Shown here piece after piece: positions 1,136-52,632 of a DNA stretch of 64,000 nucleotides. The DNA is from Leptolinea sp. UBA4782 (lineage in GTDB: Bacteria > Chloroflexota > Anaerolineae > Anaerolineales > Anaerolineaceae). Under the pieces are notes generated by a model. The model had not been told where the DNA came from and searched no databases. It saw nothing but the letters and a program-made list of their open reading frames with translations. Positions within the stretch are counted from its first letter, which is position 1. Each line of letters starts with the position of its first letter. Made by a program: the position numbers and the translations under genes. The stretch spans positions 1,732 through 65,731 of the forward strand of contig DHHC01000021.1 in the NCBI GenBank assembly GCA_002403095.1, in the 5' to 3' direction.

Positions 1136-1218
1136 TATTGCTCCTTCAAAACCACCCGTAATAACAGAAATTATACCCAATGCGCAGGAGAATGCCAGAG
1201 TTTCTGGCGGCAGGGTGA

Positions 1219-2043: not shown

Positions 2044-2047
2044 TGGA

Positions 2048-3310: not shown

Positions 3311-3378
3311 GGGGATCTCCGGTGATATCTGCCAGCCAGCGGGTCAGGGCAGGCTGGTTTTTGGATAAGTCAGGTGGC

Positions 3379-4056: not shown

Positions 4057-4062
4057 TATCTA

Positions 4063-4422: not shown

Positions 4423-4502
4423 GGCGGACTCCTTTATTGCCTTGCTGCCTTGCGGCTCTTTATTCTAATGCACAAAACCGTTTTTGCAAGACGGCAGCCG
4501 GG

Positions 4503-13876: not shown

Positions 13877-14654
13877 AGGTCAGCATAGTTTACGGTACAT
13901 TGAGCGCGATGCCGTCATGCACCGCATTTACCCGCTGGTGAAACTGGCCTGGGTTTTCATGGTTGCAGCCGGACTGTTCCTGTACAAAACCCCCTTATCC
14001 GGCGCCATCAATTTTGTGATCCTGCTGCTGCTGACTGTCTTCCTGGGGAAAATACCCCTGCGCGAGATCCTAAGCAGCTCCAAATTCATCCTGGGGCTCG
14101 GGTTGATCCTGATGTTTTTCCATTTAATCGCTGACCCCGGAAATGTTGTTTACCAGCTTGGACCTTTGAAAGTGACGGATACCGGCTTGATCCAGGGTCC
14201 AATCTTTTTCTTCCGCCTATCAGTGGTCGTGCTGGCAAGTTTTGTGCTGATCTGGACAACCGACACGCGCGACCTGATGGTTTCCCTTGCCAAGGCGGGC
14301 ATACCCTACCGGTTCGCCTTTGCCGTATTCCTGGCGCTGCGCTTCCTGCCGCTTGTTCAGCAGGAGGTAGATGCCGTCCGCTCAGCCCACGCCATCCGCG
14401 GCAGGGCTTCGAAATCTTCGCTCGGTCACCGCATCAAGCTCTGGCAGCGCTATATGTTCACCGTCCTGGTGAATGGCCTTCGCAAGGCCGAAGCAGCAGC
14501 CGCTGCGCTGGAATGCCGCGCCTTTGGCAGCAGCCCGACACGGACGTATGTGAAGGATGTCCATTTTCACGCCGTTGACCTGGTCCTATTGATCGTAACT
14601 GCTGCAATTATCACCGTCCTGGTCCTGAGGGAAAGGACCGGTTTCCTGTTCTAG
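13869..14654 (+). CDS. ECF transporter transmembrane (T) component (EcfT/CbiQ/YkoC family)
   Basis: 261 aa and polytopic. AIRGRA-type coupling helix motif (AHAIRGRAS). 8-nt overlap with the ATPase gene. Confidence 0.85.
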   Translation: MAEGQHSLRYIERDAVMHRIYPLVKLAWVFMVAAGLFLYKTPLSGAINFVILLLLTVFLGKIPLREILSSSKFILGLGLILMFFHLIADPGNVVYQLGPLKVTDTGLIQGPIFFFRLSVVVLASFVLIWTTDTRDLMVSLAKAGIPYRFAFAVFLALRFLPLVQQEVDAVRSAHAIRGRASKSSLGHRIKLWQRYMFTVLVNGLRKAEAAAAALECRAFGSSPTRTYVKDVHFHAVDLVLLIVTAAIITVLVLRERTGFLF

Positions 14655-26025: not shown

Positions 26026-27933
26026 TTACATTACTTCCACAACCCAGTCCAGCTTCAGTTCAGCCAGTTTTTCGGGGGTAGGGTTGCCGGTCTGGATATC
26101 CCAGCCCATCAGGCGGTAGTATTCATCCTTCATCCCTTCGAACTCTTCGCGGGTGTAATGGATACCCTTGGAAGGCCCGGTGCCCTGCAGCGGGCGAAAG
26201 AATTTGGGTGCCAGGTCATCATCCTTGCGGGTGAAGCCCTCGCGCATATTGAACGCCCGCAGCAAATTGATACGCCGCTCGCCGTACTCAAAGACATCTT
26301 CCATGCTCAGGTCCCACCCGGTAACCGCACGCAGCATCTCAACCAGTTCAGCCGGGAAGTAGAGCACCCAGCCGACACCCCAAACGAAGGAGCATAGTCC
26401 CATCATATCCACACAGGAGAGCACTTTCTGGGTCACTGCCACGAGTTTGGAACGCTCTTTATCAATAACACCCGGTTTGATGAAGTTGGTCATGCCGATC
26501 TGGCTCATGCGCAGGCGGGCATCTTCACCGGCTGTCTCTTCAATGCTGCCGTCATGCTCAGTCTGGGTGTGGTCAGCGCCGAAGGGGTTGACAGCATAGA
26601 TCAAACCCATCGACCGTTTCACCTGCGGCATGTGTGCCGGGGCTTCCTGCCCTTTGGCGGTTGCCAGGTTATCCTCAGTGCCCCTACCGATGATCTTAGA
26701 TGCCTTGGCCGACCCTTCAGCCAGGATGTTTCCGAAACCTTCGCGTTTAGCGATCAGTTCGACCATCTTTAGCATGGCATCGGCATTGCCGAAATGCAGG
26801 TCAATCCCGCCGGTATCTTCCAGGGTGAGCTGTCCTTTTTCAAAAGACTCCATCGCCCAGGCAATGGTGGCGCCGCAGGTGATGGTGTCCAGCCCGTTCT
26901 GGTTGCACATCTGGTTGGCCAGGGCGATTGCGCTCAGGTCGGATATGGCACAATAGGAGCCAAAGGTGCCGATGGTCTCATACTCGGGGCCGCCAAAGCG
27001 CCCTTCCACCTTGATGCCCTTGTACTCGGTTTCGACAACCCTCTTGCAGCGGATGGTGCAGGAGAAGCAGGTATCGCGCTTGACCAGGATGGTATTGGTC
27101 ATCACATCTCCGCCGATGGTCTCGTGGCCTTCAAACTGGCCCTCGTTGTAATTGCGGGTGGGAAGCCCGCCGGTAAAGTTCTGCCAGCCCACACCGCCGG
27201 CGGTTCCATCGACATGCAGGCCGTGGCTCGAGGGGGTATCTGGGATGCGCTTGGTGCCGCGCAGGAAGAGTTCGGTCAACGCCTTGGGGTCTGCAGCTTT
27301 CTTCCTCAATGCGCCCTGGACAACAATAGCCTTGAGGTTCTTGGAACCCATGACAGCACCCATGCCGGTACGCCCGTTGGCGCGGTTCATCATACTGATG
27401 ATGGCAGCAAACCTGACCTTGTTCTCGCCGGCAGGTCCAATTTGCAGGATCTGCACATTGGTGTCTTTAAGCTCCTGTTTGATCAGCTCTTCAGATTCAT
27501 GGGTTTGCTTGCCCCAGAGGTGGGCAGCATCACGGATCTCAACCTCGCCTTCGTTGATCCACAGGTATACCGGGCTGGCGGCTTTCCCCCGCACCACGAT
27601 CCCGTCAAAACCGGCATGTTTCAGCCTGGCAGGGAAGAACCCGCCACTCTGGCTGTCGCCGATTGCGCCGGTGAGGGGCGACTTCGCGTTCACACTGATC
27701 CTGGATTGCCCGGAGATGAGCAGCCCGGTGGGCATACCAGTAAAGAAAGTCATTACATTGGCAGGATCGAAGGCGTCAATACCCTTGGGGGTCTCTTTGA
27801 GGATGTAAGTTAACCCCATCGCGCTTCCGCCGCCATAGGTGCGATAAAAGGATTCCGGGGGTTCTTCTACCCACGTAGTCCGTTTGGTGAGGTCAACGTG
27901 CAAAATCTTTCCATTGATGCATTCAAGTGCCAT
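26026..27933 (-). CDS. Aldehyde:ferredoxin oxidoreductase family (tungsto/molybdopterin enzyme)
   Basis: Start at ATG 27933 (MALECINGKILHVDL...) behind GGAGAAAG. AOR N-terminal domain pattern and the CFSCTIRCKR 4Fe-4S motif. ~635 aa. Confidence 0.85.
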   Translation of the reverse strand: MALECINGKILHVDLTKRTTWVEEPPESFYRTYGGGSAMGLTYILKETPKGIDAFDPANVMTFFTGMPTGLLISGQSRISVNAKSPLTGAIGDSQSGGFFPARLKHAGFDGIVVRGKAASPVYLWINEGEVEIRDAAHLWGKQTHESEELIKQELKDTNVQILQIGPAGENKVRFAAIISMMNRANGRTGMGAVMGSKNLKAIVVQGALRKKAADPKALTELFLRGTKRIPDTPSSHGLHVDGTAGGVGWQNFTGGLPTRNYNEGQFEGHETIGGDVMTNTILVKRDTCFSCTIRCKRVVETEYKGIKVEGRFGGPEYETIGTFGSYCAISDLSAIALANQMCNQNGLDTITCGATIAWAMESFEKGQLTLEDTGGIDLHFGNADAMLKMVELIAKREGFGNILAEGSAKASKIIGRGTEDNLATAKGQEAPAHMPQVKRSMGLIYAVNPFGADHTQTEHDGSIEETAGEDARLRMSQIGMTNFIKPGVIDKERSKLVAVTQKVLSCVDMMGLCSFVWGVGWVLYFPAELVEMLRAVTGWDLSMEDVFEYGERRINLLRAFNMREGFTRKDDDLAPKFFRPLQGTGPSKGIHYTREEFEGMKDEYYRLMGWDIQTGNPTPEKLAELKLDWVVEVM

Positions 27934-28005
27934 AGCGCTTTCTCCAATCTTAATCTGTTGTGTTAAAAGTGTCCTTTGCCAGGCCCCGGAGGGCAAACCT
28001 GCACC

Positions 28006-28883: not shown

Positions 28884-29813
28884 TCAATACTCGCTGGCAG
28901 ATCCCTCTTCGCGCAGCTTGAGATAGGATTCATAGCGCTGCGGGTGAATCTTGCCCTTCTCTACAGCCGCCCTGACGGCACAACCCGGCTCGGTACGGTG
29001 GGTGCAGTCATTGAACTGGCAGTGTTCCACCAGCCCCCTCAGTTCAGGGAAATACCCGTCCAGTTCCTCCGGGGAGGTATCCCACAACGCCAGCGAGCGC
29101 AGCCCTGGCATATCTGCCACATAACCGCCGTTGAGTAGGGGGAACATCTGCCTTACCACGGTGGTGTGCCTGCCCTTGTTGTGCCAGCTGCTGACCTCGC
29201 GGACGGTTAATCCCAATTCGGGCTGGATAGCATTCAGCAGGGAAGTTTTCCCCACGCCAGAAGGTCCGGTAAAGGCGCTTAATTTATCCTCCAGCAGGGC
29301 ATGCAACTGGCCGATGCCTGTGCCGGATTTTGTCGAGGTAAAAATAATGGGGTATCCCAGGGGTTTATACAGCGCAAACATTTCGTGCGCCTGGTCTTCC
29401 CCCACCAGGTCAATTTTGTTTGCCACGATCACTGCCGGTAGCGACTGTTTTTCGCATACCACCAGGAAGCGGTCCAGCATGCGTAAATGCGGTTCAGGGC
29501 GGGCGCAGGCAAACACCAGCACAACCTGGTCGGCATTGGCGAGCATCACCTGGGGCTGCATGCCGCCCGGGGTTGGGGCCAACCTCACCAGGGCAGACCG
29601 GCGCGGAAGCATCTCTTCGATTGATCCGGTTCCGTCATCCTGCAGGGAAATTTTTACCAGGTCGCCAATGGCAATGAATTCCTGGCCGCTCAAGCCGCGT
29701 TTGATCCGCTTGCGCATCTGGCAGGTGACCTCACCCCGCCCGGTTTGTACCGTATAAAATCCAGACTGCAGCCGCAGCACCTGTCCCTCGAGCAGACCAA
29801 CTGTTTCAGGCAA
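28884..29813 (-). CDS. rsgA: Ribosome small-subunit-dependent GTPase A
   Basis: MPE...LQSGFYTV N-terminus resembles B. subtilis YloQ. NKIDL, GPSGVGKTSLLN and the CxFxDCxHxxEPGCAV zinc knuckle are present. TTG start. Confidence 0.9.
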   Translation of the reverse strand: MPETVGLLEGQVLRLQSGFYTVQTGRGEVTCQMRKRIKRGLSGQEFIAIGDLVKISLQDDGTGSIEEMLPRRSALVRLAPTPGGMQPQVMLANADQVVLVFACARPEPHLRMLDRFLVVCEKQSLPAVIVANKIDLVGEDQAHEMFALYKPLGYPIIFTSTKSGTGIGQLHALLEDKLSAFTGPSGVGKTSLLNAIQPELGLTVREVSSWHNKGRHTTVVRQMFPLLNGGYVADMPGLRSLALWDTSPEELDGYFPELRGLVEHCQFNDCTHRTEPGCAVRAAVEKGKIHPQRYESYLKLREEGSASEY

Positions 29814-29876: not shown

Positions 29877-32093
29877 TCATGGGGTGGGTGTCACCTCGGG
29901 CGTTTCGGTTGGTTCAGGTGTATCGGTGTACAGCGGTGTGGGGGTCTTGGTGGAATAGTAAGTCGATTCCCAGGGGTAGAGGGTGGTCGGCGCACCGCGG
30001 TAGTAAAGTTCCAGCACCCTGCGGAAGATCGGGACAGCAAACTCTGAACCCTCGCCCACGTTCTCAACCAGCACCACAACGGCGATATCAGGCCTGTCTG
30101 TGCGGTTGTCATCGGTATAGCCGGCAAACCAGGCATGCGGTTTACCCATCGGGTTGGTGGCAGTGCCGGTTTTGCCGTAAATGGTATAGCCGGTAGTCAC
30201 CAGGCGGTGGGCTGTGCCGCGTTCATGTTCCACCACGCTGCGCATGGCATCCTGGATGATCTCCAGGTTTTCCGTGCTGATGGGCAGCTTTCCGCGTGTC
30301 ACCGGGCTGAACTCTTTGGTTACCGTCCCGTCAATGGCGACCACTTTATCCACCACCTGGGGCTGCAGCAGGGTTCCGCCATTGCCGATAGCTGCAATGA
30401 AATCCGCCACCTGCAGGGGTGTTACCAGCATGGCGCCCTGCCCGATCCCCTGCTGGACAGCATCACCTTCGTTTTGCGGGTAAGGAATGCTGCCGATATC
30501 TTCCGCTACCTGCCCGATACCGGTCGCGGAACCTAATCCGAATCCTTTCGCCATTTCCGTCACTGCATCCGGCTCATTCTGGCGGAAGAGCTCCAGCCCG
30601 ATATGGTAAAACCACGGGTTGCAGGAGCGCATCAAGCCTTCCGGCAGGGTCAGGTCGCCGCTGGGAGCAACACCCCTTTCATAGGTCCAATCGTAAAAAA
30701 CCTGCCCGGGCAATTCAGTGAATTCGTGTCCGCAATAGTAACTGGAATATTGGTTAAATATCCCGGTCTCAAGGGCAGCGGCCATGGTGACGATCTTGAA
30801 TACCGAGCCAAGCGGGTACCCGCCTTGGGTAGCCCGGTTGAGCAATGGCTGCTCTTCAGAGGCAAATAGGTCCTGCAGCAGGTAACTGCTGTTGGCATTG
30901 GAGGTTTCAAAGGAATTGGGGTCAAAGGCGGGGGAGGAAGCTATGGCAACCACTTTGCCGGTATCGACTTCCAGAACCACAATGGCGCCCCTGAACCCGG
31001 CAATGGCTTGCTGCACGCCGCGCTGGAATTCGCTGTCGATGGTCGTATAAATAGTTTGCGCGGCGACCGAATCGCGTTTCCCGAGGCGGGTTACAATCTG
31101 GCCTTGCGGATCCACCACCAGCAAGCTGGCCCCACGCGTGCCGGCCAGGTATTCTTCACCCCATTTTTCAATACCAGCCGCACCAACCTTCTCATCGCCG
31201 CGGTAACCCAGTCGGCGGTATTCGTCCACCTCTTCTGCAAAAATTGACTGGACATACCCGATTGTATGGGGGGCAACCCCGCCGTAATTGTAAAACCGGG
31301 CGCTGTACTTGGTCATCCACAAGCCGGTAAACTTCGAAAGGACATTGAAACGCGCCTCCACTTCGCTGGCAGAAGCTTCCCCAACCGGGACATACCAATT
31401 TGCATCGCGGATGTCATCGTACAGGTTTTGGATGGCAGCGATGGGTTTATCGATCAGGTTTGAAAGCTCTGCGAGCAGCGAGCCTTCTGCGTCCCCAATT
31501 TCAGCCGGGACAACTCCCAGCGCTACCGCATCCTGCTGGGCAGCCAGCGGCTCACCGTTCCGGTCAAAGATGATCCCGCGCGAAGGGACGGTAATATCCA
31601 TCATCAGGTAATTGCCGCCCTTAAGCTCCGGCATGATCATGCCATCATCCCACAGGATCTTCCAGGTACCGTCCCCCATTTCCAGGTTCATGACCATATC
31701 CCGCTCCAGCGTTCCCACCATGCTGGTGTTGTATGTGACACCATATGAAACCTGGGCATTGCCGGGGTTGGTGAGGGTGGAATTGATCTTGTATGCAAGC
31801 GAAACCAGGCTGAGGTTGATCGCGGTGTTGTTATACCTTTTTGTGAAATCTTCCTGGCTGATGGCATCCTGGCTGACGCGCGCAAGCATGGCGTACATGG
31901 CCGGATAATCTTCAGCGGCCCAGGCATCCAGAAAAGCCCCGGCTGCCGCGGCGGCATCCGGCGCGCTGGTGACATTCACCACCGGCGTGGGAAGGGAGAT
32001 TGTAGGCGTACCTGTTACCTCGCCTGCGGGTGGATTAACCGAGCAGGCGGTGATCACAATCAAAACCAGTATCGACCAGATGCGTTTTTTCAT
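29877..32093 (-). CDS. Class B penicillin-binding protein (PBP2-type transpeptidase) with lipoprotein signal and Thr/Pro tail
   Basis: 738 aa. LIVITAC lipobox. SVFK (SxxK), SCN (SxN) and KTGTA (KTG) motifs. ATGA overlap with the maf stop. Confidence 0.85.
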   Translation of the reverse strand: MKKRIWSILVLIVITACSVNPPAGEVTGTPTISLPTPVVNVTSAPDAAAAAGAFLDAWAAEDYPAMYAMLARVSQDAISQEDFTKRYNNTAINLSLVSLAYKINSTLTNPGNAQVSYGVTYNTSMVGTLERDMVMNLEMGDGTWKILWDDGMIMPELKGGNYLMMDITVPSRGIIFDRNGEPLAAQQDAVALGVVPAEIGDAEGSLLAELSNLIDKPIAAIQNLYDDIRDANWYVPVGEASASEVEARFNVLSKFTGLWMTKYSARFYNYGGVAPHTIGYVQSIFAEEVDEYRRLGYRGDEKVGAAGIEKWGEEYLAGTRGASLLVVDPQGQIVTRLGKRDSVAAQTIYTTIDSEFQRGVQQAIAGFRGAIVVLEVDTGKVVAIASSPAFDPNSFETSNANSSYLLQDLFASEEQPLLNRATQGGYPLGSVFKIVTMAAALETGIFNQYSSYYCGHEFTELPGQVFYDWTYERGVAPSGDLTLPEGLMRSCNPWFYHIGLELFRQNEPDAVTEMAKGFGLGSATGIGQVAEDIGSIPYPQNEGDAVQQGIGQGAMLVTPLQVADFIAAIGNGGTLLQPQVVDKVVAIDGTVTKEFSPVTRGKLPISTENLEIIQDAMRSVVEHERGTAHRLVTTGYTIYGKTGTATNPMGKPHAWFAGYTDDNRTDRPDIAVVVLVENVGEGSEFAVPIFRRVLELYYRGAPTTLYPWESTYYSTKTPTPLYTDTPEPTETPEVTPTP

Positions 32094-32791
32094 TCTTTGT
32101 TACCTGTTATGCTCTCTGCTTGCTTGTATCTGCCCTGCCAGCCAAGTACCTGTGCATACACCGGGCAGGCATAATTCAGGTTCTGCTGGCAGATCCCGGA
32201 AACATCCTGCTGGAAGGGCATACCTGCACTCTTCAAGGACCGTGCCAGGTGGCATAAAGGCATCCCCATGATGCAGGCAAAACAACCATTGAGCGAATCA
32301 ACCGGTTTGAAACCGGCATGCTGAATAGCGTAAGCGCCGGCTTTATCCAGCGGGTCTCCGCTGGCGATGTACGCTTCCATTTCAATGTCGGAATACTTGC
32401 GCATGGCAACATCTTCGCAACACAGGTCCTGGACCGGCTGGCCTTTTCCCACAGGAATGACGGCAAGCGCGGTATAGACCTGGTGCACCCTGCCGCGCAA
32501 CTGTACCAGCATGCTGCGCGCTTCAGCCTGGTCCTGCGGTTTGCCCAGCAGGGTGGGTCCGTCGGCCACGATGGTGTCTGCCGCCACAACCCATTCAGCG
32601 GGCTGGGCGAACTTGCGGGCAGAAACGGCTTTCTCGTATGCCAGCCGGCAGACATAACGCGAGGGGTGTTCCCCTGGGAGGGGGGATTCATCCACATCCT
32701 GTGCCTGCACCCGGAATGTCCATCCCAGCCAGGAAAACATTTCTTTCCTGCGGGGCGAATTGGATGCAAGCAATAATGGTGCATTTAACAT
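32090..32791 (-). CDS. maf: Maf-family nucleoside triphosphate pyrophosphatase with Cys-rich C-terminal extension
   Basis: LLASNSPRRKE, DTIV and GAYAIQ motifs. About 45 extra C-terminal residues contain 6 Cys. Confidence 0.85.
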   Translation of the reverse strand: MLNAPLLLASNSPRRKEMFSWLGWTFRVQAQDVDESPLPGEHPSRYVCRLAYEKAVSARKFAQPAEWVVAADTIVADGPTLLGKPQDQAEARSMLVQLRGRVHQVYTALAVIPVGKGQPVQDLCCEDVAMRKYSDIEMEAYIASGDPLDKAGAYAIQHAGFKPVDSLNGCFACIMGMPLCHLARSLKSAGMPFQQDVSGICQQNLNYACPVYAQVLGWQGRYKQAESITGNKE

Positions 32792-32856: not shown

Positions 32857-33621
32857 CTATTTGGAGCCGGTAGGTGTTGGCAGGGGTACGTTTTCCAGAG
32901 GGGCAGCCACAATGATCAGGCGGTGGGTATTGGAGGTTTCGGGCCAGCAGGTTACCACGGTCAGGCGCTCATCCGTTGATGGCATCAGCCACTGGGCGTT
33001 TTCCAGGCGTTTCTCCACGGGCATATCGCGCTCTTCCACCAGGAGCTTGTTGACCACCTCATAACGGTACAGACGCTCTTCCCCGTACACTTCTATCTCA
33101 TCTCCCGGGACAAGGTAGATCAATTTTTCAAAGACCTTGCCATATACGTTGTGGTGGCCGATGAGGACGGTGTTCCCGGGTACGCCCAGCCCTGCCGATG
33201 TTGTCTGCCAGCCGGCCGCTTTTTCATCCGGCGCCGCCCATTGCTGGAACACCTTGCCATCCAGTTCCACCAGCTGCACCAGGGCAGAAATAACCGGGGT
33301 GTCGATTCCAAGCTCCTTTATTACAAAGCGCTGCGGGGTCTCGCCTACCGGTACCGGCGTGGCAGATGGAACAGGTGTTGCTTCTGGCAATCCCGGGTTA
33401 CTGGTTGCCTCAGGATTGGCTGGCAGCGTAGCAGTACTCACCTCCAGGGCATAAGGCACAAAGCCGGTGGCAATGACCTTCTCTCCCCCCGAACCGCTCT
33501 GGCGCTGCATGCGGAAGCCGTTCTGAATGGCAATCACCGTGCTGGCAATCCCCCAGCCGAGCAGGAGGAAGCCCACGCCGTACAGCATATACCCTTTAAG
33601 GAACTCTTTCAGTTTACTCAT
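32857..33621 (-). CDS. Sortase-family transpeptidase (membrane-anchored)
   Basis: N-terminal TM segment, Thr/Pro linker, catalytic-type His in LIGHHN, Cys in LTVVTCWP (TLxTC motif), and a downstream Arg (HRLIIVA). Confidence 0.8.
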   Translation of the reverse strand: MSKLKEFLKGYMLYGVGFLLLGWGIASTVIAIQNGFRMQRQSGSGGEKVIATGFVPYALEVSTATLPANPEATSNPGLPEATPVPSATPVPVGETPQRFVIKELGIDTPVISALVQLVELDGKVFQQWAAPDEKAAGWQTTSAGLGVPGNTVLIGHHNVYGKVFEKLIYLVPGDEIEVYGEERLYRYEVVNKLLVEERDMPVEKRLENAQWLMPSTDERLTVVTCWPETSNTHRLIIVAAPLENVPLPTPTGSK

Positions 33622-33680
33622 TGCGTGGATTGATTATAAAAAATGGAGTGGACAAATGCAATAGGCAATTCTGACGCGCC

Positions 33681-33712
33681 TAGACTGCTGGCTGGAAAAA
33701 GCCAGCAGTCTA
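33681..33712 (-). terminator. Strong hairpin between the substrate gene and the sortase gene (terminator/attenuator)
   Basis: Perfect 13-bp stem TAGACTGCTGGCT / AGCCAGCAGTCTA with a 6-nt loop. No clear trailing U-tract on the minus strand. Confidence 0.45.
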
Positions 33713-33742
33713 TGAGTTGAACTCTCTTCTTATAGCAGAAGA

Positions 33743-34552
33743 TTAATGATTCTTGCTGATGCGGTATGTAACTGCCTGCAACACCATGGCCATACCAAAG
33801 AACAAAATACTCAAGTTCATAGTCAGGCTGCGGGCAAATGGGATAACATTGCCTCTAATATCTACACCGGTTACTGGGATCAGGACTCCCGCCGGAGGAT
33901 TGGGATCCTGGGGCGGCTGCTGTGTTGGGTCTCCTGGTGGTACATCCGTAGGATCCTGTGGCGGATTGTCAGTTGGTACCTGGGTAGGGACATCAGTTGG
34001 TACCTGGGTAGGGACATCAGTTGGTACCTGGGTAGGTACATCGGTCGGCACCTGGGTCGGGACATCGGTTGGTACCTGGGTCGGGACATCAGTTGGTACC
34101 TGGGTCGGTACATCAGTCGGTACCTGGGTCGGGACACCAGTGGGTACCTGGGTCGGGACACCAGTGGGTACCTGGGTCGGGACACCAGTCGGTACCTGGG
34201 TCGGGACACCAGTGTTCACAACGCATGCCCCGGAGTGATCCCCTGCATGCAGGATATTACCCGATGCATCAATGTGACCGCCTTGCCCATTACTAATAAG
34301 TGCATTTATGGATGGTGATATCGTGTTGCATTGTCCATTGGGCATGCAGTGACACCAGATAATCTCGCATGTGTTATTGTAATCATTAGGGCAGGGATCC
34401 CAGGAATCATCATACCCGTCACCATCGGAATCTGCTGCCTTGACGGGGATATTAACCATCCCAAGTACCATGGCTGCCAGGAGCAGGCCCGCCCCGCACA
34501 CATACAATATTCTGGTTAGTTTACGCAACTGGGTTAAATGCTTTTCGTTCAT
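33743..34552 (-). CDS. Secreted repeat protein with IPVTG-type C-terminal sorting signal (candidate sortase substrate 1)
   Basis: 269 aa. Signal/TM segment. DSDGDGYDDSWDPCPND (TSP type-3-like Ca-binding repeat). Cys/His domain WCHCMPNG...GHIDASGNILHAGDHSGAC. 4x TGVPTQVP plus 6x TDVPTQVP. VLIPVTGVD (IPVTG = 33866..33880), a TM helix and a basic tail. Confidence 0.75.
   Translation of the reverse strand: MNEKHLTQLRKLTRILYVCGAGLLLAAMVLGMVNIPVKAADSDGDGYDDSWDPCPNDYNNTCEIIWCHCMPNGQCNTISPSINALISNGQGGHIDASGNILHAGDHSGACVVNTGVPTQVPTGVPTQVPTGVPTQVPTGVPTQVPTDVPTQVPTDVPTQVPTDVPTQVPTDVPTQVPTDVPTQVPTDVPTQVPTDNPPQDPTDVPPGDPTQQPPQDPNPPAGVLIPVTGVDIRGNVIPFARSLTMNLSILFFGMAMVLQAVTYRISKNH
33975..34214. repeat. 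Tandem repeat, 10 x 24 nt, inside 33743..34552
   Basis: Units GGTACCTGGGT(A/C)GG(G/T)ACA(T/C)C(A/G)GT(T/C/G), counted directly. There are 6 units of the ACATC type (Asp) and 4 of the ACACC type (Gly). Confidence 0.95.
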
Positions 34553-34607
34553 AGCGTCTCTCTTTCTCTACGTTCACTTGTAAGACAAATTCAGCAGTTC
34601 TTACTAT

Positions 34608-35372
34608 CTATTCAATCCTCAGCTTATATCCCAGGCGGTCCACATTGATCAGGAGATCACTATCTGGATAAATATCGGCAAATTTCTGGCGGATCAGATA
34701 AATAAGGTATTTAATTCGGCGATAGGTTTCTTCTGAATCAATGCCCCATACCTGCGTGGCGATAGCCTGGTAGGACACTACCGTCGGGGCTGCTTTAGCA
34801 AGAGTTGCCAGTACTGCAAATTCTTTGGGGGTCAGGTCAATAAACCTCTCTCGATATTTCACCTCCTGGTTTACCATATCAATTACCAGCTGCACCGCCG
34901 GGAATACCAGGCGGGTAACTTCACTTTGGCTGCCAGCCCGCCGCAGCACAGCTTTTACGCGCGCCACCACTTCGGAATTGTAAAACGGCTTGGTGATGTA
35001 GTCATCCACTCCCTCTTGCAGCCCTTTGACCACATCTTCCTTGCTGCCTAAAGCCGAGATAATAATCACCGGAACATCAGTCATGGTGCGCAGATGCTGC
35101 AGGGTCTCCCAGCCGTCCATCTCGGGCATCATCAGGTCGAGCAGGACGAGGTGGGGCCTATCCTCCACCACCTTCCGCAGCGCTTCCTTTCCGCTGCTGG
35201 CGCTCATGACGTTATATCCGCCAACCTTCAGGATATGCTTCAACAGGTAGGTGGTGTCCAGATCGTCTTCCACGATCAACAACCTCGGACGTTCGACTGC
35301 CATCTGGTCAAGGTCTACCCCCATCTCGGCTATTGGTTGGCTCAGGTTAAAGGCTGTTGTCACTGCTACCAT
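34608..35372 (-). CDS. OmpR/PhoB-type response regulator (receiver plus winged helix), no adjacent histidine kinase
   Basis: LLIVEDDLD...LVLLDLMMPEMDG receiver motifs and a C-terminal trans_reg_C pattern (LTPKEF..L..L, GYKL). Alternative starts lie at 35324 and 35303. Confidence 0.85.
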   Translation of the reverse strand: MVAVTTAFNLSQPIAEMGVDLDQMAVERPRLLIVEDDLDTTYLLKHILKVGGYNVMSASSGKEALRKVVEDRPHLVLLDLMMPEMDGWETLQHLRTMTDVPVIIISALGSKEDVVKGLQEGVDDYITKPFYNSEVVARVKAVLRRAGSQSEVTRLVFPAVQLVIDMVNQEVKYRERFIDLTPKEFAVLATLAKAAPTVVSYQAIATQVWGIDSEETYRRIKYLIYLIRQKFADIYPDSDLLINVDRLGYKLRIE

Positions 35373-35394
35373 TGTTTACCCCAGATTTACACAA

Positions 35395-35430
35395 ATTAAA
35401 ATAAAAACCGACCTTGTGTGTGGCCGGTTT
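35395..35430 (-). terminator. Intrinsic terminator/attenuator 25 nt upstream of the response-regulator start codon
   Basis: Minus strand: AAACCGGCC-ACACACAA-GGTCGGTTT (9 bp including one G.U), followed by TTATTTTAATTT. Confidence 0.65.
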
Positions 35431-35578
35431 CGCTGCTCTGCTCCCCAGGTGCACCGCTTATCAAAAAAAATAAGCAAGCGACCAGATTAGTACGCCTGGA
35501 TCATCGCATCCATTTTCTATGCAATTTGAAAACAAGAAATTCAATAATGGAACTGCAAGGTTTTATTACTGTAAAAAT

Positions 35579-35607
35579 ATTATAGCAGACTAGTAACGGT
35601 ATGTCAA
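35579..35607 (-). promoter_or_regulatory. Consensus sigma-70-type promoter TTGACA-17-TATAAT
   Basis: Minus strand: TTGACA (35607..35602), a 17-nt spacer, then TATAAT (35584..35579). Predicted TSS near 35572. Confidence 0.65.
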
Positions 35608-35671
35608 CAATCAATTTTTACATTACCAGAAAATAACCGTGTTTTCATGCCAGTACAGGGAAATTAAAGGC

Positions 35672-35699
35672 GTACCAGCGGGATGGCGCCCGCTGGTAC
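35672..35699 (-). terminator. Intrinsic terminator after 35736..36449
   Basis: Perfect 11-bp stem GTACCAGCGGG / CCCGCTGGTAC with a 6-nt loop, followed on the minus strand by GCCTTTAATTT. Confidence 0.7.
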
Positions 35700-35735
35700 A
35701 CTCTTACAAACCTGCCTCAACAAAAGAAGGAGGGG

Positions 35736-36449
35736 TTAATTCAATTTTTTACTGACTGCTGTCAAGACCAGAGCCAAACCCATGAAGGCAAATCCAAGGT
35801 TGAATGACAACTCTTTCATGAAGTTGATTGACCCGAATGGATTGCCGGTCAAATCAATGCCAGTGACGGGGATCAGTACACCTGGATCACCCTGGACCAC
35901 GGGTGGGGGCAGGTCCGGATCGCCTGGATCTTCAGTTGGGTCCGGGGGCACTTCCGTTGGCACCTGGGTGGGTACAGATGTTTGGGTGGGAATAGCAGTT
36001 GGACCACCCGGAGTATTTGTTGGCGTATAAGTAGGTGTTACCTTCGGGGTGTCAGTCGGTGTGCTGGTTGGAGTATTTGTAGGTGTGCTGGTAGAAGCCA
36101 CCGGGGTATTGGTAGGTGTATTGGTGGGGGTGGCTGTCGGCGGAACCGGGGTGTTGGTTGGAACTGGAGTGGGCTCTTCTGTAGGATCCTCACAAGGTCC
36201 TTCATGGTCGCCCGCATGCAGCGGCGATCCTGAGGCACTGACATGCCCCGCATTAATCAATGCTGCCATTGCCAAATTCAATGTCTGGCTGTTGCCGTTG
36301 GGTTCATAATGGCACCAGGTAACAATTTCCTGTTGTGCCGCAACAGGTGTTCCAACCATGCTTAAGATTAATCCTGCAAGCAGGAACGCTGAACCGAGCA
36401 GATACGATCCCCTCATCGCACGCCGGATGATACTACTTTTCGGTTTCAT
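35736..36449 (-). CDS. Secreted Thr/Pro-rich protein with IPVTG-type C-terminal sorting signal (candidate sortase substrate 2)
   Basis: Start at ATG 36449 ([10 protein letters not shown]...) behind GAGAGGAG. Signal peptide. WCHYEPNG...[19 protein letters not shown] domain. TP-rich linker. VLIPVTGID (IPVTG = 35859..35873), a TM helix and a KKLN tail. Confidence 0.75.
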
Positions 36450-36496
36450 GACGTCTCCTCTCATTGATAAGAACCGATAACTACAAGAACAATACA

Positions 36497-36518
36497 GATA
36501 AATATGATAATATTTATC
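36497..36518. promoter_or_regulatory. 22-bp AT-rich palindrome in the divergent region upstream of dnaN
   Basis: GATAAATAT-GATA-ATATTTATC with 9-bp perfect arms. Function unknown. Confidence 0.25.
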
Positions 36519-36676
36519 CTAATATTAGAGTCATTATAGCGTTTGAAATGCGTTTGTCAATAGTCAATTCTCTGGATTCGAAAATTCTAATATTTCAGGG
36601 TGTGATATACTTTAATTTCGAAAGTATCCTTTCCATCATCATCCGGCAGCAATTTCCGCCAGAGAGGTCGCCCACA

Positions 36677-37807
36677 GTGAAAGTTACCGTTTCGCAACAA
36701 CAACTTGCTCATGGACTGAGCCTGGTCTCAAGGGCTGTTGCCCCCCGCAGCACCCTGCCTGTACTGGCAAACATCCTGGTTGCAACCGATGAAGGCCGGG
36801 TGCGCCTTTCGGCCACCAACCTCGAACTGGGGATTTCCTGCTGGATCGGCGGTCAGATCGCTGAAGAAGGCGCCATTACCGTGCCTGCCCGCACCCTGAG
36901 CGACCTGGTAAACACCCTGCCGAACGATCCCGTGCTGCTTGAATTGAATCCGAAGAACCAGGTCCTCAACGTCCGCTGCGGCACCTCCATAACCGACATA
37001 AAAGGCATTGACGCCCAGGAATATCCTCCTATCCCGGTTCCTGACCTGGCTGACGGGCTTGAACTGAACGTCAGCGACTTTAAAGAAATGATCCAGCAGG
37101 TGGTCTTTGCGGTTTCCACCGATGAAGCCCGCCCTGTGCTGCAAGGCGTGCAGATGTCAGTGAACGGCACCTTCATCACCATGGCAGCCACCGACGGCTA
37201 CCGCGTTTCTGTCCGCAAGGCAGAGCTTGAGCATCCTGCTGCCAGCCCTTTTTCCATCATCATCCCAGCCCGCGCCCTCAGCGAACTTGCCCGCATTGCC
37301 TCTGACGGAGACCAGAAGATTGTCATGGTCACCCCACCCGGGCGAGGGCAGGTGCTTTTCCACCTGCGGGACGCTGAGCTGGTTTCCTCGCTGATCGAAG
37401 GCAATTTCCCGCCGTATGACAAGATCATCCCCACCAGCTTCAAGACCAAAACCATCTTATCCACCGCCGAGTTCCTGAAATCCTGCCGCCAGGCGGAGAT
37501 CATCGCCCGCGACGGCAACAATATTGTCCGGTTGGATATCCAGCCCGCAGTCGAAGGGGCACCAGGGGTGGTGGAAATCTCCGCCCAATCCGAAGAAACC
37601 GGTTTCAGTGAGATCAAGCTGGCTGCCAACGTTGAAGGACCCGGACTGTTAATCGCCTTCAACGTCCGCTTCCTGCGGGAAGTACTGGATGTGATGAAAT
37701 CGCCCAATATTGTGCTGCAGACCAACGCCAACAATACTCCAGGTCTGTTGCAGCAGACCGGCGATGACAGTTTCATCCATGTCATCATGCCGATGCATCT
37801 CGGCTGA
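36677..37807 (+). CDS. dnaN: DNA polymerase III beta sliding clamp
   Basis: The track ORF starts at TTG 36464, but its first 71 codons are AT-rich intergenic-like sequence. GTG 36677 gives (M)KVTVSQQQLAHGLSLVSRAV..STLPVLANILV, the canonical DnaN N-terminus, with AGAGAGG upstream. ~376 aa. Confidence 0.85.
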   Translation: MKVTVSQQQLAHGLSLVSRAVAPRSTLPVLANILVATDEGRVRLSATNLELGISCWIGGQIAEEGAITVPARTLSDLVNTLPNDPVLLELNPKNQVLNVRCGTSITDIKGIDAQEYPPIPVPDLADGLELNVSDFKEMIQQVVFAVSTDEARPVLQGVQMSVNGTFITMAATDGYRVSVRKAELEHPAASPFSIIIPARALSELARIASDGDQKIVMVTPPGRGQVLFHLRDAELVSSLIEGNFPPYDKIIPTSFKTKTILSTAEFLKSCRQAEIIARDGNNIVRLDIQPAVEGAPGVVEISAQSEETGFSEIKLAANVEGPGLLIAFNVRFLREVLDVMKSPNIVLQTNANNTPGLLQQTGDDSFIHVIMPMHLG

Positions 37808-37815
37808 CATGTACT

Positions 37816-40164
37816 ATGCCAGGCGAAGTCAGCTTTCTGCCCAGTTCTAACGAACGGTACCTCTCTATCGCCCTGGCTTTAGCCCAATATCCGATACTCA
37901 GTAGCCGCATCCGTGAAAGGATGCGGCAGTTCTTATTCACCAACGGTATCATCCAGCACCAGGTGTTTGAATCCCAGGTGCGCGAGGCTGCCATCCGCTC
38001 GCAGCAGCGCGAAGGGATGGAGCAGCCTTACGAGGAAGAGCCAACGGAGATATGGGAGCTGCGCGTGCAGCGTATGCGCGACCAGCTGACCGACTTGCGT
38101 TTCAGTCACTTTTTCAAGTTTGAGACCTTTGAAAAGATCGTCAACGAGGTGCTGGAAGAACGCGGGCTGCAGGTGGATAACCTGATGTTCTCGATGAACC
38201 CCGAACTGGCGCCCCTGGAAACGGTTTTTGAACAGGCCATGTCGCTCGAGCGCATGGACCTGAGCCAGAGGCAACACTATGCCCACCGGCTGCAGGAATT
38301 AAAAGTCGTCCTCATCCGCGCCTTGATCAGCGACCAGCTGCGTTACATCAATATAGCCAAGGAATGGTTCACCATTCATGACCTCTCGGATATCCGCCGC
38401 AGGCGGATAGGCGCCGGACGCATCGGCGGAAAATCGGCCGGTATGCTGCTGGCCACTCGCGTTATCACCGACAGCCTGGAACTGCCGCCTGATGTGACAG
38501 TGGACACGCCCGAATCGTATTACATCGGTTCGCAGGAACTGTACACCTACATGTCGATTAACAACCTGGCGCACTGGAATGACCAGAAATACAAGACCGA
38601 AGAGGAGATGCGCGCCGATTACCCGACCATTGTGGATGACTTCCTGAAGGGCGAGCTTCCCCCGGATATCACCGCCCGCCTGGAAGGCGTTATGGCTTCG
38701 GTGGGCAAACGCCCGGTTATCGTGCGTTCATCCAGCCTGCTGGAAGACAACTTTGGCACCTCTTTTGCAGGAAAGTATGAAAGCATCTTCCTGCCCAACC
38801 AGGCATCTCCAGCCGAGAATATGCACGCCCTCACCCGCGCCATAGCCCAGATCTATGCATCCACCCTTAACCCCAACGCCCTGCTCTACCGCCGCAGCAA
38901 AGGATTGCTGGATTATGACGAACGCATGGCCATCCTCATCCAGGTGGTGCAGGGTGAATCGTACGGGAAATACTACCTGCCCCAGGCAGCCGGGGTTGCG
39001 TTCAGCCACAATCTGTTCCGCTGGTCGCCCCAGCTGCGCAAAGAGGATGGGTTTGTGCGCCTGGTGTGGGGTCTCGGCACCCGGGCAGTGGACAGGGTGG
39101 GTAACGATTACCCCCGCCTGGTCGCCCTCAGCCACCCACTGCTGCGCCCCTCCACCAAGCCGTCTATCATCCAGCATTATTCCCAGCAGTACGTGGACCT
39201 GCTGGACCTGGAAGAGAATGTATTCAAGACCCTGCCTGTCCATGAGGTGGCAAAACAGGATTACCCGGTGCTGCGCTATCTCTTCCAGACCTTCGAAGAC
39301 GGCTACTTTACCACCCTGCGGTCCAACCTGCTGCCTTCAGATAACCACAACCTGGTGTTGACCTATGATGAATTCCTGCGGTCCACCCCGTTTGCTGAAA
39401 AAATGCGCCATATCCTGCAAACCCTTGAGCAGGTCTACCACGCCCCGGTTGATTTGGAATTCACCGCCCATTTGCGGAAAGGTGAGGGATCCAGGCGCAT
39501 CCTGCAGATCACAGTCCTGCAATGCCGGCCGCAAAGCCAGCTGGCTGCTACCGAACAGGTGCCCTTCCCGACCGGACTTAAGGAAGACAAGGTCATCTTC
39601 TCCACCCGTTTTGTGGTGCCTCAAGGGTATATCGAGAAGGTCGATTATGTGGTCTATGTACCGCCGGAAGGCTACTTTGCCCTGCCGACGATGAACCTGC
39701 GGATCGAACTGGCACGTGCCATCGGCAAGCTGAATGCCGCCCTGGCAGATAAGTCATTCATCTGCATTGGGCCGGGGCGCTGGGGCAGCTCAAACTCCGA
39801 CCTGGGGGTGCCTATCAGCTATGGAGATATCTACCACACCAAATCGCTTGTAGAGCTTGCAGGTCCGGGCATCGGCCCCGAACCGGAACCCTCCCTGGGC
39901 ACCCACTTTTTCCAGGACCTGCTGGAATCGCAAATCTACCCCCTGGCGATCGAACTGGATAACACCAACAGCTCATTCAACCATACGTTTCTTAATGAAA
40001 GCCCAAACCGGGTAAACGAATTCATCAAGCTGGATGCCTCCCTCAAGGATTCGTTGCGCCTGGTGCGGGTGACAGATTATGCCCCCGACCATCATATTTG
40101 CATCATAATGAATGAGGAAAAGGGACAGGCATTAGCCTACCTCGAACCCGAATCCCCCTTCTAA
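37816..40164 (+). CDS. PEP/pyruvate-binding (PPDK_N, ATP-grasp) domain protein
   Basis: 782 aa. GGKSAGMLLA and VIVRSSSLLEDNFGTSFAGKYES are typical of the pyruvate phosphate dikinase / PEP synthase nucleotide-binding domain. No PEP-utiliser His domain is recognised. Confidence 0.7.
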   Translation: MPGEVSFLPSSNERYLSIALALAQYPILSSRIRERMRQFLFTNGIIQHQVFESQVREAAIRSQQREGMEQPYEEEPTEIWELRVQRMRDQLTDLRFSHFFKFETFEKIVNEVLEERGLQVDNLMFSMNPELAPLETVFEQAMSLERMDLSQRQHYAHRLQELKVVLIRALISDQLRYINIAKEWFTIHDLSDIRRRRIGAGRIGGKSAGMLLATRVITDSLELPPDVTVDTPESYYIGSQELYTYMSINNLAHWNDQKYKTEEEMRADYPTIVDDFLKGELPPDITARLEGVMASVGKRPVIVRSSSLLEDNFGTSFAGKYESIFLPNQASPAENMHALTRAIAQIYASTLNPNALLYRRSKGLLDYDERMAILIQVVQGESYGKYYLPQAAGVAFSHNLFRWSPQLRKEDGFVRLVWGLGTRAVDRVGNDYPRLVALSHPLLRPSTKPSIIQHYSQQYVDLLDLEENVFKTLPVHEVAKQDYPVLRYLFQTFEDGYFTTLRSNLLPSDNHNLVLTYDEFLRSTPFAEKMRHILQTLEQVYHAPVDLEFTAHLRKGEGSRRILQITVLQCRPQSQLAATEQVPFPTGLKEDKVIFSTRFVVPQGYIEKVDYVVYVPPEGYFALPTMNLRIELARAIGKLNAALADKSFICIGPGRWGSSNSDLGVPISYGDIYHTKSLVELAGPGIGPEPEPSLGTHFFQDLLESQIYPLAIELDNTNSSFNHTFLNESPNRVNEFIKLDASLKDSLRLVRVTDYAPDHHICIIMNEEKGQALAYLEPESPF

Positions 40165-51763: not shown

Positions 51764-51771
51764 CGATGGGT

Positions 51772-51844
51772 CGGGGTGTAGCGCAGTTGGTAGCGCACCG
51801 TGTTTGGGACGCGGGGGTCGGCGGTTCGAGTCCGCCCACCCCGA
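51772..51844 (+). tRNA. tRNA-Pro (anticodon UGG), CCA not encoded
   Basis: Hand-folded. Acceptor CGGGGTG/CACCCCG, D arm GCGC-AGTTGGTA-GCGC, anticodon arm CCGTG-TTTGGGA-CGCGG, variable loop GGGTC, T arm GGCGG-TTCGAGT-CCGCC, discriminator A. C1-G72, G37 and A73 fit bacterial tRNA-Pro. Confidence 0.9.
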
Positions 51845-51909
51845 CTGGACAGCCGCCGGATCATTTCCGGCGGTTTGGTATAACAGGGAATATAATTACC
51901 ATAACCATC

Positions 51910-52632
51910 ATGGAAACCCCTTTCCTTTCCCTTATTTTTCCTGCCCATAATGAAGAAGAACGCCTGCCGCAAACGCTGGAGGTGGTTGACCGCTTTCTCA
52001 AACAGCAGCCTTACACGGCCGAAGTGATCGTGGTGGAAAACGGCAGCAGCGACCGCACACTCGAGCTGGCAAATGAATACCGATCGAGGATGCCCGCGCT
52101 GAAAGTGCTGCATGAAGATGGGCGAGGCAAAGGGCTGGCTATCAGGCGCGGTATGCTGGAGGCCTGCGGGGAATACCGCTTCTTCCTGGATGTGGACCTT
52201 TCCATGCCGGTCGAACAGGTCAACCGTTTTCTCCCGCCTGAGCTGCCGGAAGTGCAGATCGCGATCGCCTCGCGCGAGGGCAAAGGTGCTGAACGTTTCA
52301 ATGAACCTGCCTACCGGCACTGGATCGGGCGCGGTTTCAACGCCCTGGTGCGGCTTATGGCTTTACCCCGCCTGCACGATTCACAATGCGGCTTTAAGTG
52401 CTTCCGGGGCGACATTGCAGATGTGCTCTTTCCCATGCAAACCATCATGGGTTGGACTTTTGATGTCGAGATCCTGTACATCGCCCTCATGAAGGGTTAC
52501 CGGGTGACCGAGATTCCCATCCCCTGGTACCACAACCCTAAAAGCAAGGTGCGGGTCTGGAGGGATTCGATCCAGATGGCACGCGACCTGCTGTCCATCC
52601 GCCGCAATGCCCGCCGCGGGCTGTATGGCTAG
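51910..52632 (+). CDS. Family 2 glycosyltransferase (polyprenyl-phosphate glycosyltransferase-like)
   Basis: The track ORF 51766..52632 reads through the tRNA. The real start is ATG 51910 (METPFLSLIFPAHNEEERL). VENGSSD and DVD (DxD) motifs. Confidence 0.8.
   Translation: METPFLSLIFPAHNEEERLPQTLEVVDRFLKQQPYTAEVIVVENGSSDRTLELANEYRSRMPALKVLHEDGRGKGLAIRRGMLEACGEYRFFLDVDLSMPVEQVNRFLPPELPEVQIAIASREGKGAERFNEPAYRHWIGRGFNALVRLMALPRLHDSQCGFKCFRGDIADVLFPMQTIMGWTFDVEILYIALMKGYRVTEIPIPWYHNPKSKVRVWRDSIQMARDLLSIRRNARRGLYG

Follow-up and report, generated by a model that had tools for sequence, protein, structure and literature searches.

How does a bacterium of the class Anaerolineae mark proteins for attachment to its surface, and what governs when they are made? 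The question is raised by a locus of Leptolinea sp. UBA4782 (Chloroflexota; contig DHHC01000021.1), in which a sortase gene lies close to the genes of two secreted proteins, here called A and B. We analysed the 64,000-nucleotide stretch that contains it (the window; positions are counted from its first letter) together with related loci, which carry L numbers below, as their proteins carry P numbers. An earlier note, made from the sequence alone, had described the sortase and two proteins sharing VLIPVTG(V/I)D followed by a spacer, a transmembrane helix and a basic tail, and these open reading frames (ORFs) and motifs are confirmed. Taken as a whole, we explain the locus as a surface-protein display module of a Leptolinea-like Anaerolineae bacterium, probably gated by cyclic dimeric guanosine monophosphate (c-di-GMP), and give this explanation a probability of roughly 70%.

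LIPVTG lies exactly 40 residues before the stop in both A and B; the window contains no further site of this kind. The C-terminal position holds in relatives as well: six-frame translations of 1.02 Mb (the window and the related loci) contain the hexapeptide 39 times, 38 of them at 30-48 amino acids before a stop, and three permuted hexapeptides used as controls have no occurrence in the same 1.02 Mb. The consensus is (V/I/L)-L-I-P-V-T-G-(A/V/I)-(D/E)-(L/F/V)-(S/T). Across 35 motif hits, two of which are evidently spurious ORFs, L, I, P, V, T and G are each present in 32-35 and an acidic residue stands two positions past the glycine in 33; the motif is replaced by LIAVTG at one related locus and by LLPQTG at another. 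The distance from glycine to stop is constant at 35-45 residues across loci, with a spacer of ~15 amino acids and a helix that opens with NLG or NFG (xNLGxxFxG). A and B both have the full layout of a sorted protein, i.e. signal peptide, C-terminal xPxTG, hydrophobic helix and basic tail. A scan of one genome per GTDB species yielded 45 sortase loci, and in 24 of these Anaerolineae loci an ORF ends in the LIPVTG signal, usually 100-500 bp 5' of the sortase start. The pairing of a non-canonical, extended signal with a sortase, as the earlier note had proposed, recurs even where the surroundings differ: in L002-L004 a 51%-identical sortase in an unrelated genomic context is directly preceded by a protein with VLIPVTGVD.

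As in the classical LPXTG case, where the protein likewise starts with a signal peptide, the signal of A and B has three parts: a pentapeptide with TG at its end, a hydrophobic helix and a basic tail. It differs in being extended and near-invariant, in its ~15-residue spacer and in the NLG or NFG start of its helix, and the anchor models of Pfam and NCBIfam (Gram_pos_anchor PF00746, TIGR01167) do not match it even at E<=10. A profile of the C-terminal signal gave 10 short and uninformative matches against an index of 5.8 billion proteins, a word index being probably ill-suited to short queries. Full-text literature searches on an IPVTG signal, and on sortases in Chloroflexi or Anaerolineae, returned nothing relevant. 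LIPVTGxD might instead be a mere conserved juxtamembrane segment of C-terminally anchored membrane proteins with a sortase as coincidental neighbour, and the spacer, longer than that of classical LPXTG signals, would suit this; the x-P-x-T-G form, the fixed distance to the stop, the helix with its basic tail and the presence of a neighbouring sortase across genera (24 of 45 loci) make it scarcely credible. Judged from sequence, LIPVTG(A/V/I)(D/E) appears to be the general, cognate signal of an Anaerolineae sortase family.

The enzyme itself is a member of the sortase superfamily (Pfam PF04203, peptidase C60; 71.3 bits against a cut-off of 26.6), with an N-terminal transmembrane helix, a disordered linker and a catalytic domain at about residues 96-245. 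From the motifs LIGHHN (153-158), TVVTCWP (221-227) and THRLI (232-236) and their alignment, the putative His-Cys-Arg triad would consist of H156 or H157, C225 and R234, and the catalytic-motif residues are invariant in 28 family members. An AlphaFold2 model (predicted local distance difference test score, pLDDT, 79.9) matches solved sortases in Foldseek at E ~1e-10. By both sequence and fold the nearest of these are class E enzymes of Actinobacteria (A. oris SrtA, 5UTT; T. fusca SrtE; S. coelicolor SrtE1, 5CUW), which share the N-terminal membrane anchor and linker, at 21-27% identity. The 9-residue spacing of catalytic Cys and Arg is also that of SrtE1. Class E is likewise the best of the NCBIfam class models (53.5 bits, followed by F with 38, C with 34.6 and D with 28.2), but by the tests applied the enzyme falls outside it, as the class E model (NF033747) has a cut-off of 160 and the substrates do not carry the LAXTG motif of that class. 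Both window substrates and 32 of the 35 motif hits have LIPVTG, in which proline and not alanine occupies the second motif position, isoleucine and valine are fixed, and an acidic residue follows two past the glycine.

A profile built from the window sortase and two relatives recovers at least 2304 proteins at E<=1e-10, and the few that have a source name are from Anaerolineaceae or Anaerolineales. The 45 surveyed loci are likewise labelled almost throughout as Anaerolineae genera or as Chloroflexi/Chloroflexia metagenome-assembled genomes, the genera including Leptolinea (88% identity), Thermanaerothrix, Levilinea, Ornatilinea, Bellilinea and Longilinea. A separate observation concerns a conserved membrane protein of ~245 amino acids that is absent from the window. 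It is encoded convergently just 3' of the sortase at L011:10649-11386 (-), has homologues in 26 of the 45 Anaerolineae loci and carries the motifs AHNH...LVLQTC...GRLFVIA. Pfam has no match for it; in an hhalign comparison with the sortase (E 0.086, suggestive only) these motifs line up with the sortase His, Cys and Arg, and it may be a very divergent sortase-like enzyme.

When would such proteins be made? The earlier note had suspected that the locus has regulation of its own, and so it appears, but what it had missed is an RNA element that forms the 5' leader of the response-regulator gene between A and B. The Rfam c-di-GMP-II riboswitch model RF01786 aligns over its full length with this leader at 36.6 bits (E 2e-5 in a 4.4-kb search, 1.8e-6 in the 363-nt intergenic region). 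The conserved elements GGA.GCGAUGA, GGAGC and AACCGGCC are retained, and, as we read the alignment, the pseudoknot (GGUCGC with GCGA..CC) departs from the consensus pair, GGGCAC and GUGC..CC, by compensatory changes. Elements like it were located by motif at other loci, and eight of them were aligned with the window copy; all eight P3 pairs show compensatory changes, and 92.6% of cells are paired as against 28-43% when pairing partners are slid, the pseudoknot being invariant within this set. The covariance model built from this alignment, R1, scores the window copy at 100.9 bits and finds 39 hits (E<=4e-7) in the 1.02 Mb. Over all 39, 93.5% of cells are paired (35-50% in slid controls) and 165 cells carry double changes; both-sided changes affect 8 of 8 P3 pairs, 1 of 3 in P2 and 3 of 3 in the additional hairpin P3a, values that none of 500 shuffles reached. 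Three matches in the seven loci tested pass Rfam gathering thresholds on their own, namely L033:8731-8835 as c-di-GMP-II (54.3 bits) and, for the variant c-di-GMP-II-GAG (RF03169, gathering score 40), L060:4892-4997 (44.8 bits) and L033:6203-6301 (43.6 bits). On this conservation and covariation the leader reads as a variant of the c-di-GMP-II clan with an extra hairpin, and c-di-GMP would be its ligand. Literature searches combining c-di-GMP-II with Chloroflexi gave nothing relevant.

The aptamer also competes with a terminator. Its invariant 3' segment GAAACCGGCC doubles as the 5' arm of a terminator hairpin in 33 of the 39 copies, and in the window this hairpin, completed by ACACACAA and GGUCGGUUUU, is part of the ligand-free minimum-free-energy fold (z -3.0). 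At L023:10723-10950, L031:10909-11137 and 13981-14204, and L047:7209-7444 the aptamer stands as a tandem pair before one regulator gene, and both copies have a terminator; such an arrangement would make the response sharper and more digital.

Every one of the 39 R1 hits lies 10-306 nt 5' of an ORF. Behind them are 30 OmpR-type regulators, seven LIPVTG proteins and two ORFs with the Cys/His domain described below but no detected LIPVTG end (a frameshifted B orthologue in L009, and L062). As the element stands before regulators and LIPVTG proteins alike, the unit appears to consist of riboswitch, regulator, substrate and sortase. Complete riboswitch-regulator-substrate cassettes are moreover duplicated beside the sortase in L023 and L031. 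B orthologues have a riboswitch in L001 (9829-9937) and L009 (13969-14078), and none was detected before those of L008 and L054; this uneven presence suggests that, within the clade, B has lost or acquired its riboswitch. A further observation was made on the 42% GC contig L062, where a weaker riboswitch match (432-520, 38 bits) lies directly 5' of a 1613-amino-acid Cys/His-domain protein (521-5392) with an LPATG-type anchor, and a weak sortase-like ORF follows at 6304-6894. The link between riboswitch and domain may from this reach beyond the LIPVTG clade.

All genes from 29.9 to 36.5 kb of the window are on the minus strand, in the order B, OmpR-type response regulator, A, sortase, maf, PBP2, rsgA (Table 1). 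The terminator-like hairpin after B makes B a transcription unit of its own, for which the consensus promoter match ~75 nt 5' of its ATG at 36449 would serve. The regulator had been taken in the earlier note for an orphan that merely sits between the two substrate genes. It instead heads an operon, behind the riboswitch-like leader and a putative promoter ~200 nt 5' of the gene, and would be co-transcribed with A and the sortase. Between position 32500 and the end of A there is no terminator-like site, the sortase-to-maf gap is 65 bp and maf and PBP2 overlap by 4 bp, so that these two genes may be co-transcribed with the operon as well.

The regulator belongs to the OmpR/PhoB family (Response_reg 98.6 bits, Trans_reg_C 53.4 bits). 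Its receiver domain has the acidic pocket IVEDD (33-37), the acceptor Asp in LLDLMMP (77-83) and ITKPF (126-130), and a winged-helix domain comes after it; the protein stays below the cut-off of every named NCBIfam equivalog, MtrA scoring best with 163.5 bits against 300. No histidine kinase was found in the window or within +-10 kb of any sortase locus by a regex motif scan that recovers the known kinase in L002 and that divergent kinases could escape. Related regulators (tblastn identities of at least 45%, mostly 50-65%, range 45-65%) occur near the sortase in 26 of the 45 loci by neighbour clustering, mostly just upstream and on the same strand. In the Leptolinea-like clade (the window, L001, L008, L009 and L054) the flanks differ (maf-PBP2, dnaN) and regulator and substrates stay with the sortase. 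A functional unit is indicated by this retention despite changed flanks, by the riboswitch that travels with the regulator and by the duplicated cassettes. A feed-forward role of the regulator is speculative.

We propose that the module operates as follows. Transcription would begin at the putative operon promoter and enter the riboswitch. With no ligand present, GAAACCGGCC would pair downstream to form the intrinsic terminator, and transcription would halt; with ligand bound, GAAACCGGCC would be held in the pseudoknot and P1, and RNA polymerase would read through (an ON switch) into the regulator, A and sortase genes and possibly maf and PBP2. A, and B from its own transcript, would by analogy be exported via their long signal peptides, and helix and basic tail would keep them in the membrane. 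The sortase, itself membrane-anchored, would then cut LIPVTG between Thr and Gly and attach both proteins to peptidoglycan precursors, and each would display a Cys/His mini-domain on a Pro/Thr-rich stalk.

Table 1. Features of the sortase locus, in order of position in the window.
Feature	Position	Strand	Description
rsgA	28884..29813	-	Pfam RsgA
PBP2/mrdA	29877..32093	-	Pfam PBP2 domains
maf	32090..32791	-	Pfam Maf
Sortase	32857..33621	-	254 aa; Pfam Sortase, E 8e-20
Substrate A	33743..34552	-	269 aa
Sorting signal of A (putative)	33746-33883	-	LIPVTGVD
24-bp tandem repeat in A	33969..34213	-	10.2 copies, 93% matches; encodes Pro/Thr (PT) stalk
Cys/His domain of A	34223-34369	-	
Thrombospondin type-3-like acidic motif of A	34382-34432	-	Sub-threshold resemblance
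OmpR/PhoB-family response regulator	34608..35372	-	Pfam Response_reg and Trans_reg_C
Expression platform (putative)	35404..35431	-	Terminator hairpin GAAACCGGCC-ACACACAA-GGUCGGUUUU and U-run
c-di-GMP-II-type aptamer	35413..35520	-	P2, P3, extra P3a hairpin, pseudoknot GGUCGC / GCGA..CC
Sigma-70-type promoter of regulator/A/sortase operon (putative)	35579..35607	-	TTGACA-17-TATAAT, 12/12 matches, TG preceding the -10 hexamer
Intrinsic-terminator-like hairpin after B	35670..35701	-	13-bp stem, 9 GC pairs, T-rich tail
Substrate B	35736..36449	-	237 aa; 242 aa with alternative ATG 36464
Sorting signal of B (putative)	35739..35876	-	LIPVTG-ID, ~15 aa spacer, transmembrane helix, KKLN tail
Cys/His domain of B	36192..36329	-	Profile family; AlphaFold2 pLDDT 93.9
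Sigma-70-type promoter of B (putative)	36533..36560	-	TTGACA-16-TATAAT, 12/12 matches; consensus match only

Several observations weigh against this explanation. The window aptamer falls below the RF01786 (clan CL00127) gathering score of 53.5, which makes it invisible at default thresholds; it contains an inserted hairpin, its P1 has only ~3 bp, and some related copies are better fitted by the c-di-GMP-II-GAG model. These properties, together with a pseudoknot sequence that departs from the consensus, would also suit an RNA of the c-di-GMP-II fold that has turned to a different ligand (another cyclic dinucleotide or a related nucleotide), in which case a signal other than c-di-GMP would gate the operon. 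We consider this unlikely, as the L033 copy passes the canonical c-di-GMP-II threshold and the surface proteins and sortase encoded downstream match the known biology of class II c-di-GMP switches. To return to c-di-GMP gating, no credible gene of the window contains a GGDEF, EAL or HD-GYP motif, and B has no riboswitch in the window (36465-36560; its leader is ~75 nt), whereas the L001 and L009 orthologues have one. The score of the sortase is below the cut-off of each NCBIfam class. YebC, RuvC, a predicted RNA methyltransferase and RuvA are as conserved downstream of the sortase (24-26 loci) as the regulator is upstream, so the adjacency of regulator and sortase is in part plain synteny. Finally, no structural relative of the Cys/His domain was found in the PDB, BFVD and PDB-sequence searches described below.

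What would be displayed? Read from sequence, A and B each consist of a long signal peptide, a Cys/His domain, a stalk, the LIPVTG signal, the helix and the basic tail. For B, a start at 36464 is less likely because the homologues P0001 and P0002 begin at the MKP... equivalent of 36449. The stalk of A is (VPTQVPTD/G)n and that of B is Pro/Thr-rich; the sole Pfam match of A is to the low-complexity PT repeat, and B has no Pfam or NCBIfam match. Close homologues of A vary in length (P0194, 265 amino acids; P0003, 204; P0004, 212), which suggests that stalk length is polymorphic. In L009 the B orthologue (13276-14023, minus strand) is spread over two reading frames, with the domain in one and the LIPVTG tail in the other, and is a case of frameshift or assembly error in the PT-repeat region. 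The N-terminal segment that the earlier note had seen to be shared by A and B is indeed common to both (BLASTP E 9e-18). The thrombospondin type-3-like repeat that it had read in A was not borne out, as an isolated 30-residue segment scores 14.9 bits (E 0.022) against a cut-off of 25 for PF02412 (TSP_3); by sequence, the likeness exists at motif level only.

The Cys/His domain had been called unrecognised, and it remains so: it has no match in Pfam or NCBIfam even at E<=10, and none among PDB sequences in a hidden Markov model search. An AlphaFold2 prediction of high confidence (pLDDT 93.9) consists of a beta-hairpin, a short helix and loops, for which Foldseek found no match in the PDB (best E 0.47) or BFVD (best E 0.14). 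A profile from a 13-sequence seed, searched against 1.84 billion representatives, recovered at least 511 representatives of clusters at 50% identity at E<=1e-3, 106 of them at E<=1e-10. The domain is ~47 residues long and usually comes right after the signal peptide (median start at about residue 40). There are two subfamilies, CH.EPNGN.QTL.LP..AL..AGH..A.GNPLHAGDH.G.C and CHAAGQ.GT..F.TLT..Y.A.FGQAGHFNEDGTP.AGHE.DYLG.C, and the positions C, H, T, GH, G, H, D, G and C do not vary in the seed. An additional Cys pair (CHC...NGNC) is complete in 34 of 72 members, absent from 36 and represented by a single Cys in two. Such all-or-none occurrence in 70 of the 72 points to a disulfide and so to an extracytoplasmic domain, which is most likely disulfide-clamped, with an invariant His3-Asp cluster. 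Our preferred guess, speculative and of low confidence, is a metal-stabilised binding or adhesion head, given that the His3-Asp cluster adjoins the probable disulfide clamp, that a PT stalk carries the domain at its tip and that adhesin modules occur together with the domain. Heme binding of the CXXCH type was considered for the WCH motif and ruled out, there being no CXXCH. A shorter motif relative, KITICHYPPGN..NPQTL.IP.SAW.AH.AHGD..G.C, which has no Pfam model, forms tandem repeats in the giant surface proteins P0202, P0208, P0213 and P0251.

In 142 sampled members of the family, 64 (~45%) carry x[PA]xTG with a transmembrane helix and basic tail, comprising 25 LPxTG, 13 IPxTG and 20 (M/L/F/Y)AxTG signals. 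The domain gene lies directly 5' of a sortase gene in L053, L061, L065 (with two sortases), L069 and L070 (1319 amino acids, LPATGG), and in L060 two LIPVTG domain proteins are followed by an Anaerolineae-type sortase. As at least three unrelated sortase lineages and three motifs are involved, the domain appears to be habitual sortase cargo. On the low-GC contigs (35-48%) L053:8001-9225, L061:5794-7268, L065:5911-7619 and L069 the signal is QVLGAST(M/D/Y)AxTG with a helix and a Lys-rich tail (QAVLGASTMASTG in L053, GC 35%). The gene next in line, or overlapping, encodes a small sortase that stays under every NCBIfam class cut-off and that in L053 shares just 21% identity with the sortase of the window.

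A sortase dedicated to Cys/His-domain proteins could also be proposed, much as sortase B is dedicated to IsdC, with the adjacent orphan response regulator in control. Both window substrates contain the domain, domain genes stand directly 5' of the unrelated sortases just listed, and nearly half of the sampled family are sortase substrates. We nevertheless regard dedication, which the earlier note had also inferred, as quite improbable. The LIPVTG proteins of the 24 loci range from 104 to 1188 amino acids and are mostly unrelated to A and B, so that the signal, found there with the same sortase family and other cargo, is not reserved for the Cys/His domain. At loci of this sortase family the domain is confined to L001, L008, L009, L054, L055, L060 and the L002 clade. 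Many domain proteins also lack an anchor altogether, and some of these are encoded by phages: unanchored members lie on phage- or virus-labelled contigs at L005:8001-8489, L006:1957-2445, L007:8001-8474 and L056/L072:2864-3622, of which L007 also carries terminase, portal and capsid genes, and in L005 and L006 the domain gene comes after an SLT_3 lysin and a small ORF. Many small unanchored members, such as P0009 of L007, end in ...SDGRSDGKSDG..C..C...G(W/Y)K. A viral search with a narrower domain alignment returned a single IMG/VR contig (L056), and in PHROGs only the low-complexity linker of the phage-type proteins matched (phrog_15511), the Cys/His domain itself having no match.

The company that the domain keeps bears on another possibility, that the sortase is a pilus-type polymerase of class C kind and that A and B are pilin-like subunits of fibres and not singly wall-anchored proteins. 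Large domain proteins also contain SpaA-type, DUF11, SdrD_B and VWA modules, which are typical of pilins and adhesins, and two substrates are clustered with one sortase. A and B, however, lack Ig-like and SpaA-type pilin domains as well as any recognisable pilin motif and are mostly low-complexity PT linker, while the nearest sortases are housekeeping class E enzymes and the class C model scores just 34.6 bits; we rate fibre assembly as very improbable.

Conservation of the surroundings is narrower than that of the module. The sortase stands next to maf-PBP2 solely in the close relatives L001, L008 and L009; the order dnaN-B-regulator-A-sortase-maf-PBP2-rsgA is kept in L001 and, up to the contig end within maf, in L008, and is rearranged in L009. 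In the window dnaN (36464-37807, plus strand) is divergent from B, its listed ORF beginning at a TTG far 5' of the likely start, and is adjoined by a gene for a PPDK_N-domain protein (37816-40164, plus strand). An aldehyde:ferredoxin oxidoreductase gene (26026-27996, minus strand) lies farther downstream of the module. The sole Rfam match at gathering threshold in the 64 kb is a tRNA at 51772-51844 (plus strand, 65.8 bits), overlapped by the mechanically listed ORF 51766-52632 (plus strand).

Sortase substrates under the control of class II c-di-GMP riboswitches were reportedly described in Clostridioides difficile by Peltier and colleagues in 2015. In that species class II riboswitches switch on the sortase substrates CD2831 (Cdi-2-3) and CD3246 (Cdi-2-1) (PMC6366702). 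The likeness to the window lies in a class II-type aptamer with a terminator platform, forming an ON switch, 5' of genes for sortase-dependent surface proteins. The differences are that here the host belongs to the Chloroflexota, the aptamer has an extra hairpin, the motif is LIPVTGxD and not that of C. difficile, no release protease like ZmpI/PPEP-1 was seen in the region examined, and the switch precedes an OmpR-type regulator that would be co-transcribed with substrate and sortase. With the sortase gene behind the switch, the anchoring enzyme would be gated too. The collagen adhesin Cap/CbpA of Bacillus thuringiensis is a wall-anchored protein. It is described as a cell-surface adhesin controlled by the c-di-GMP riboswitch Bc2 (PMC4933901, PMC7423583), which is of another class (class I), belongs to another phylum and is not known to have a linked regulator or sortase. 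Dedicated operons such as srtB-isdC also place a substrate gene with a non-canonical motif directly 5' of the sortase; the window signal differs in serving many cargo types across the class, and no uptake system is linked to it. By analogy, the Leptolinea system would work like the c-di-GMP-controlled sortase substrates of Firmicutes and the housekeeping sortase systems of class E. Judged against the libraries and literature searched, four features seem to have gone undescribed, namely the LIPVTGxD signal, the Cys/His domain family, the riboswitch-regulator-substrate-sortase cassette and the fact that the sortase is itself gated; in particular, no report of a gated sortase or of a co-transcribed response regulator was found there.

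A more far-reaching reading joins these parts, and we put it forward as tentative and, in all its parts together, doubtful. In it, riboswitch, OmpR-type regulator, LIPVTG protein and sortase would form a modular, duplicable and Anaerolineae-specific c-di-GMP effector cassette of feed-forward type, in which c-di-GMP gates adhesins, the anchoring enzyme and a transcription factor at once. The Cys/His domain would be a new extracellular metal-binding fold and the ancestral preferred cargo of sortases, common to several, probably monoderm, bacterial lineages and to phages.

Anaerolineae are filamentous and abound in sludge granules, sediments and biofilms. To our knowledge, almost nothing is known of their surface biology, and the architecture of the Chloroflexota envelope is debated. 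A class-wide sortase family with a near-invariant signal would offer a direct way to list the wall-anchored proteins of Anaerolineae. Default annotation misses the riboswitch of the window as well as the signal and the domain, for which no models exist, and the Cys/His domain merits consideration as a new Pfam family and as a target for structural work. As the riboswitch-regulator-sortase unit is also present in the cultured relatives Ornatilinea apprima (L041), Levilinea saccharolytica (L045) and Thermanaerothrix daxensis (L016), it is directly testable. The tight link of a c-di-GMP-II-type element to these genes, with all 39 copies before an ORF and 37 of them before a regulator or LIPVTG gene, would extend riboswitch-controlled sortase substrates beyond the Firmicutes.

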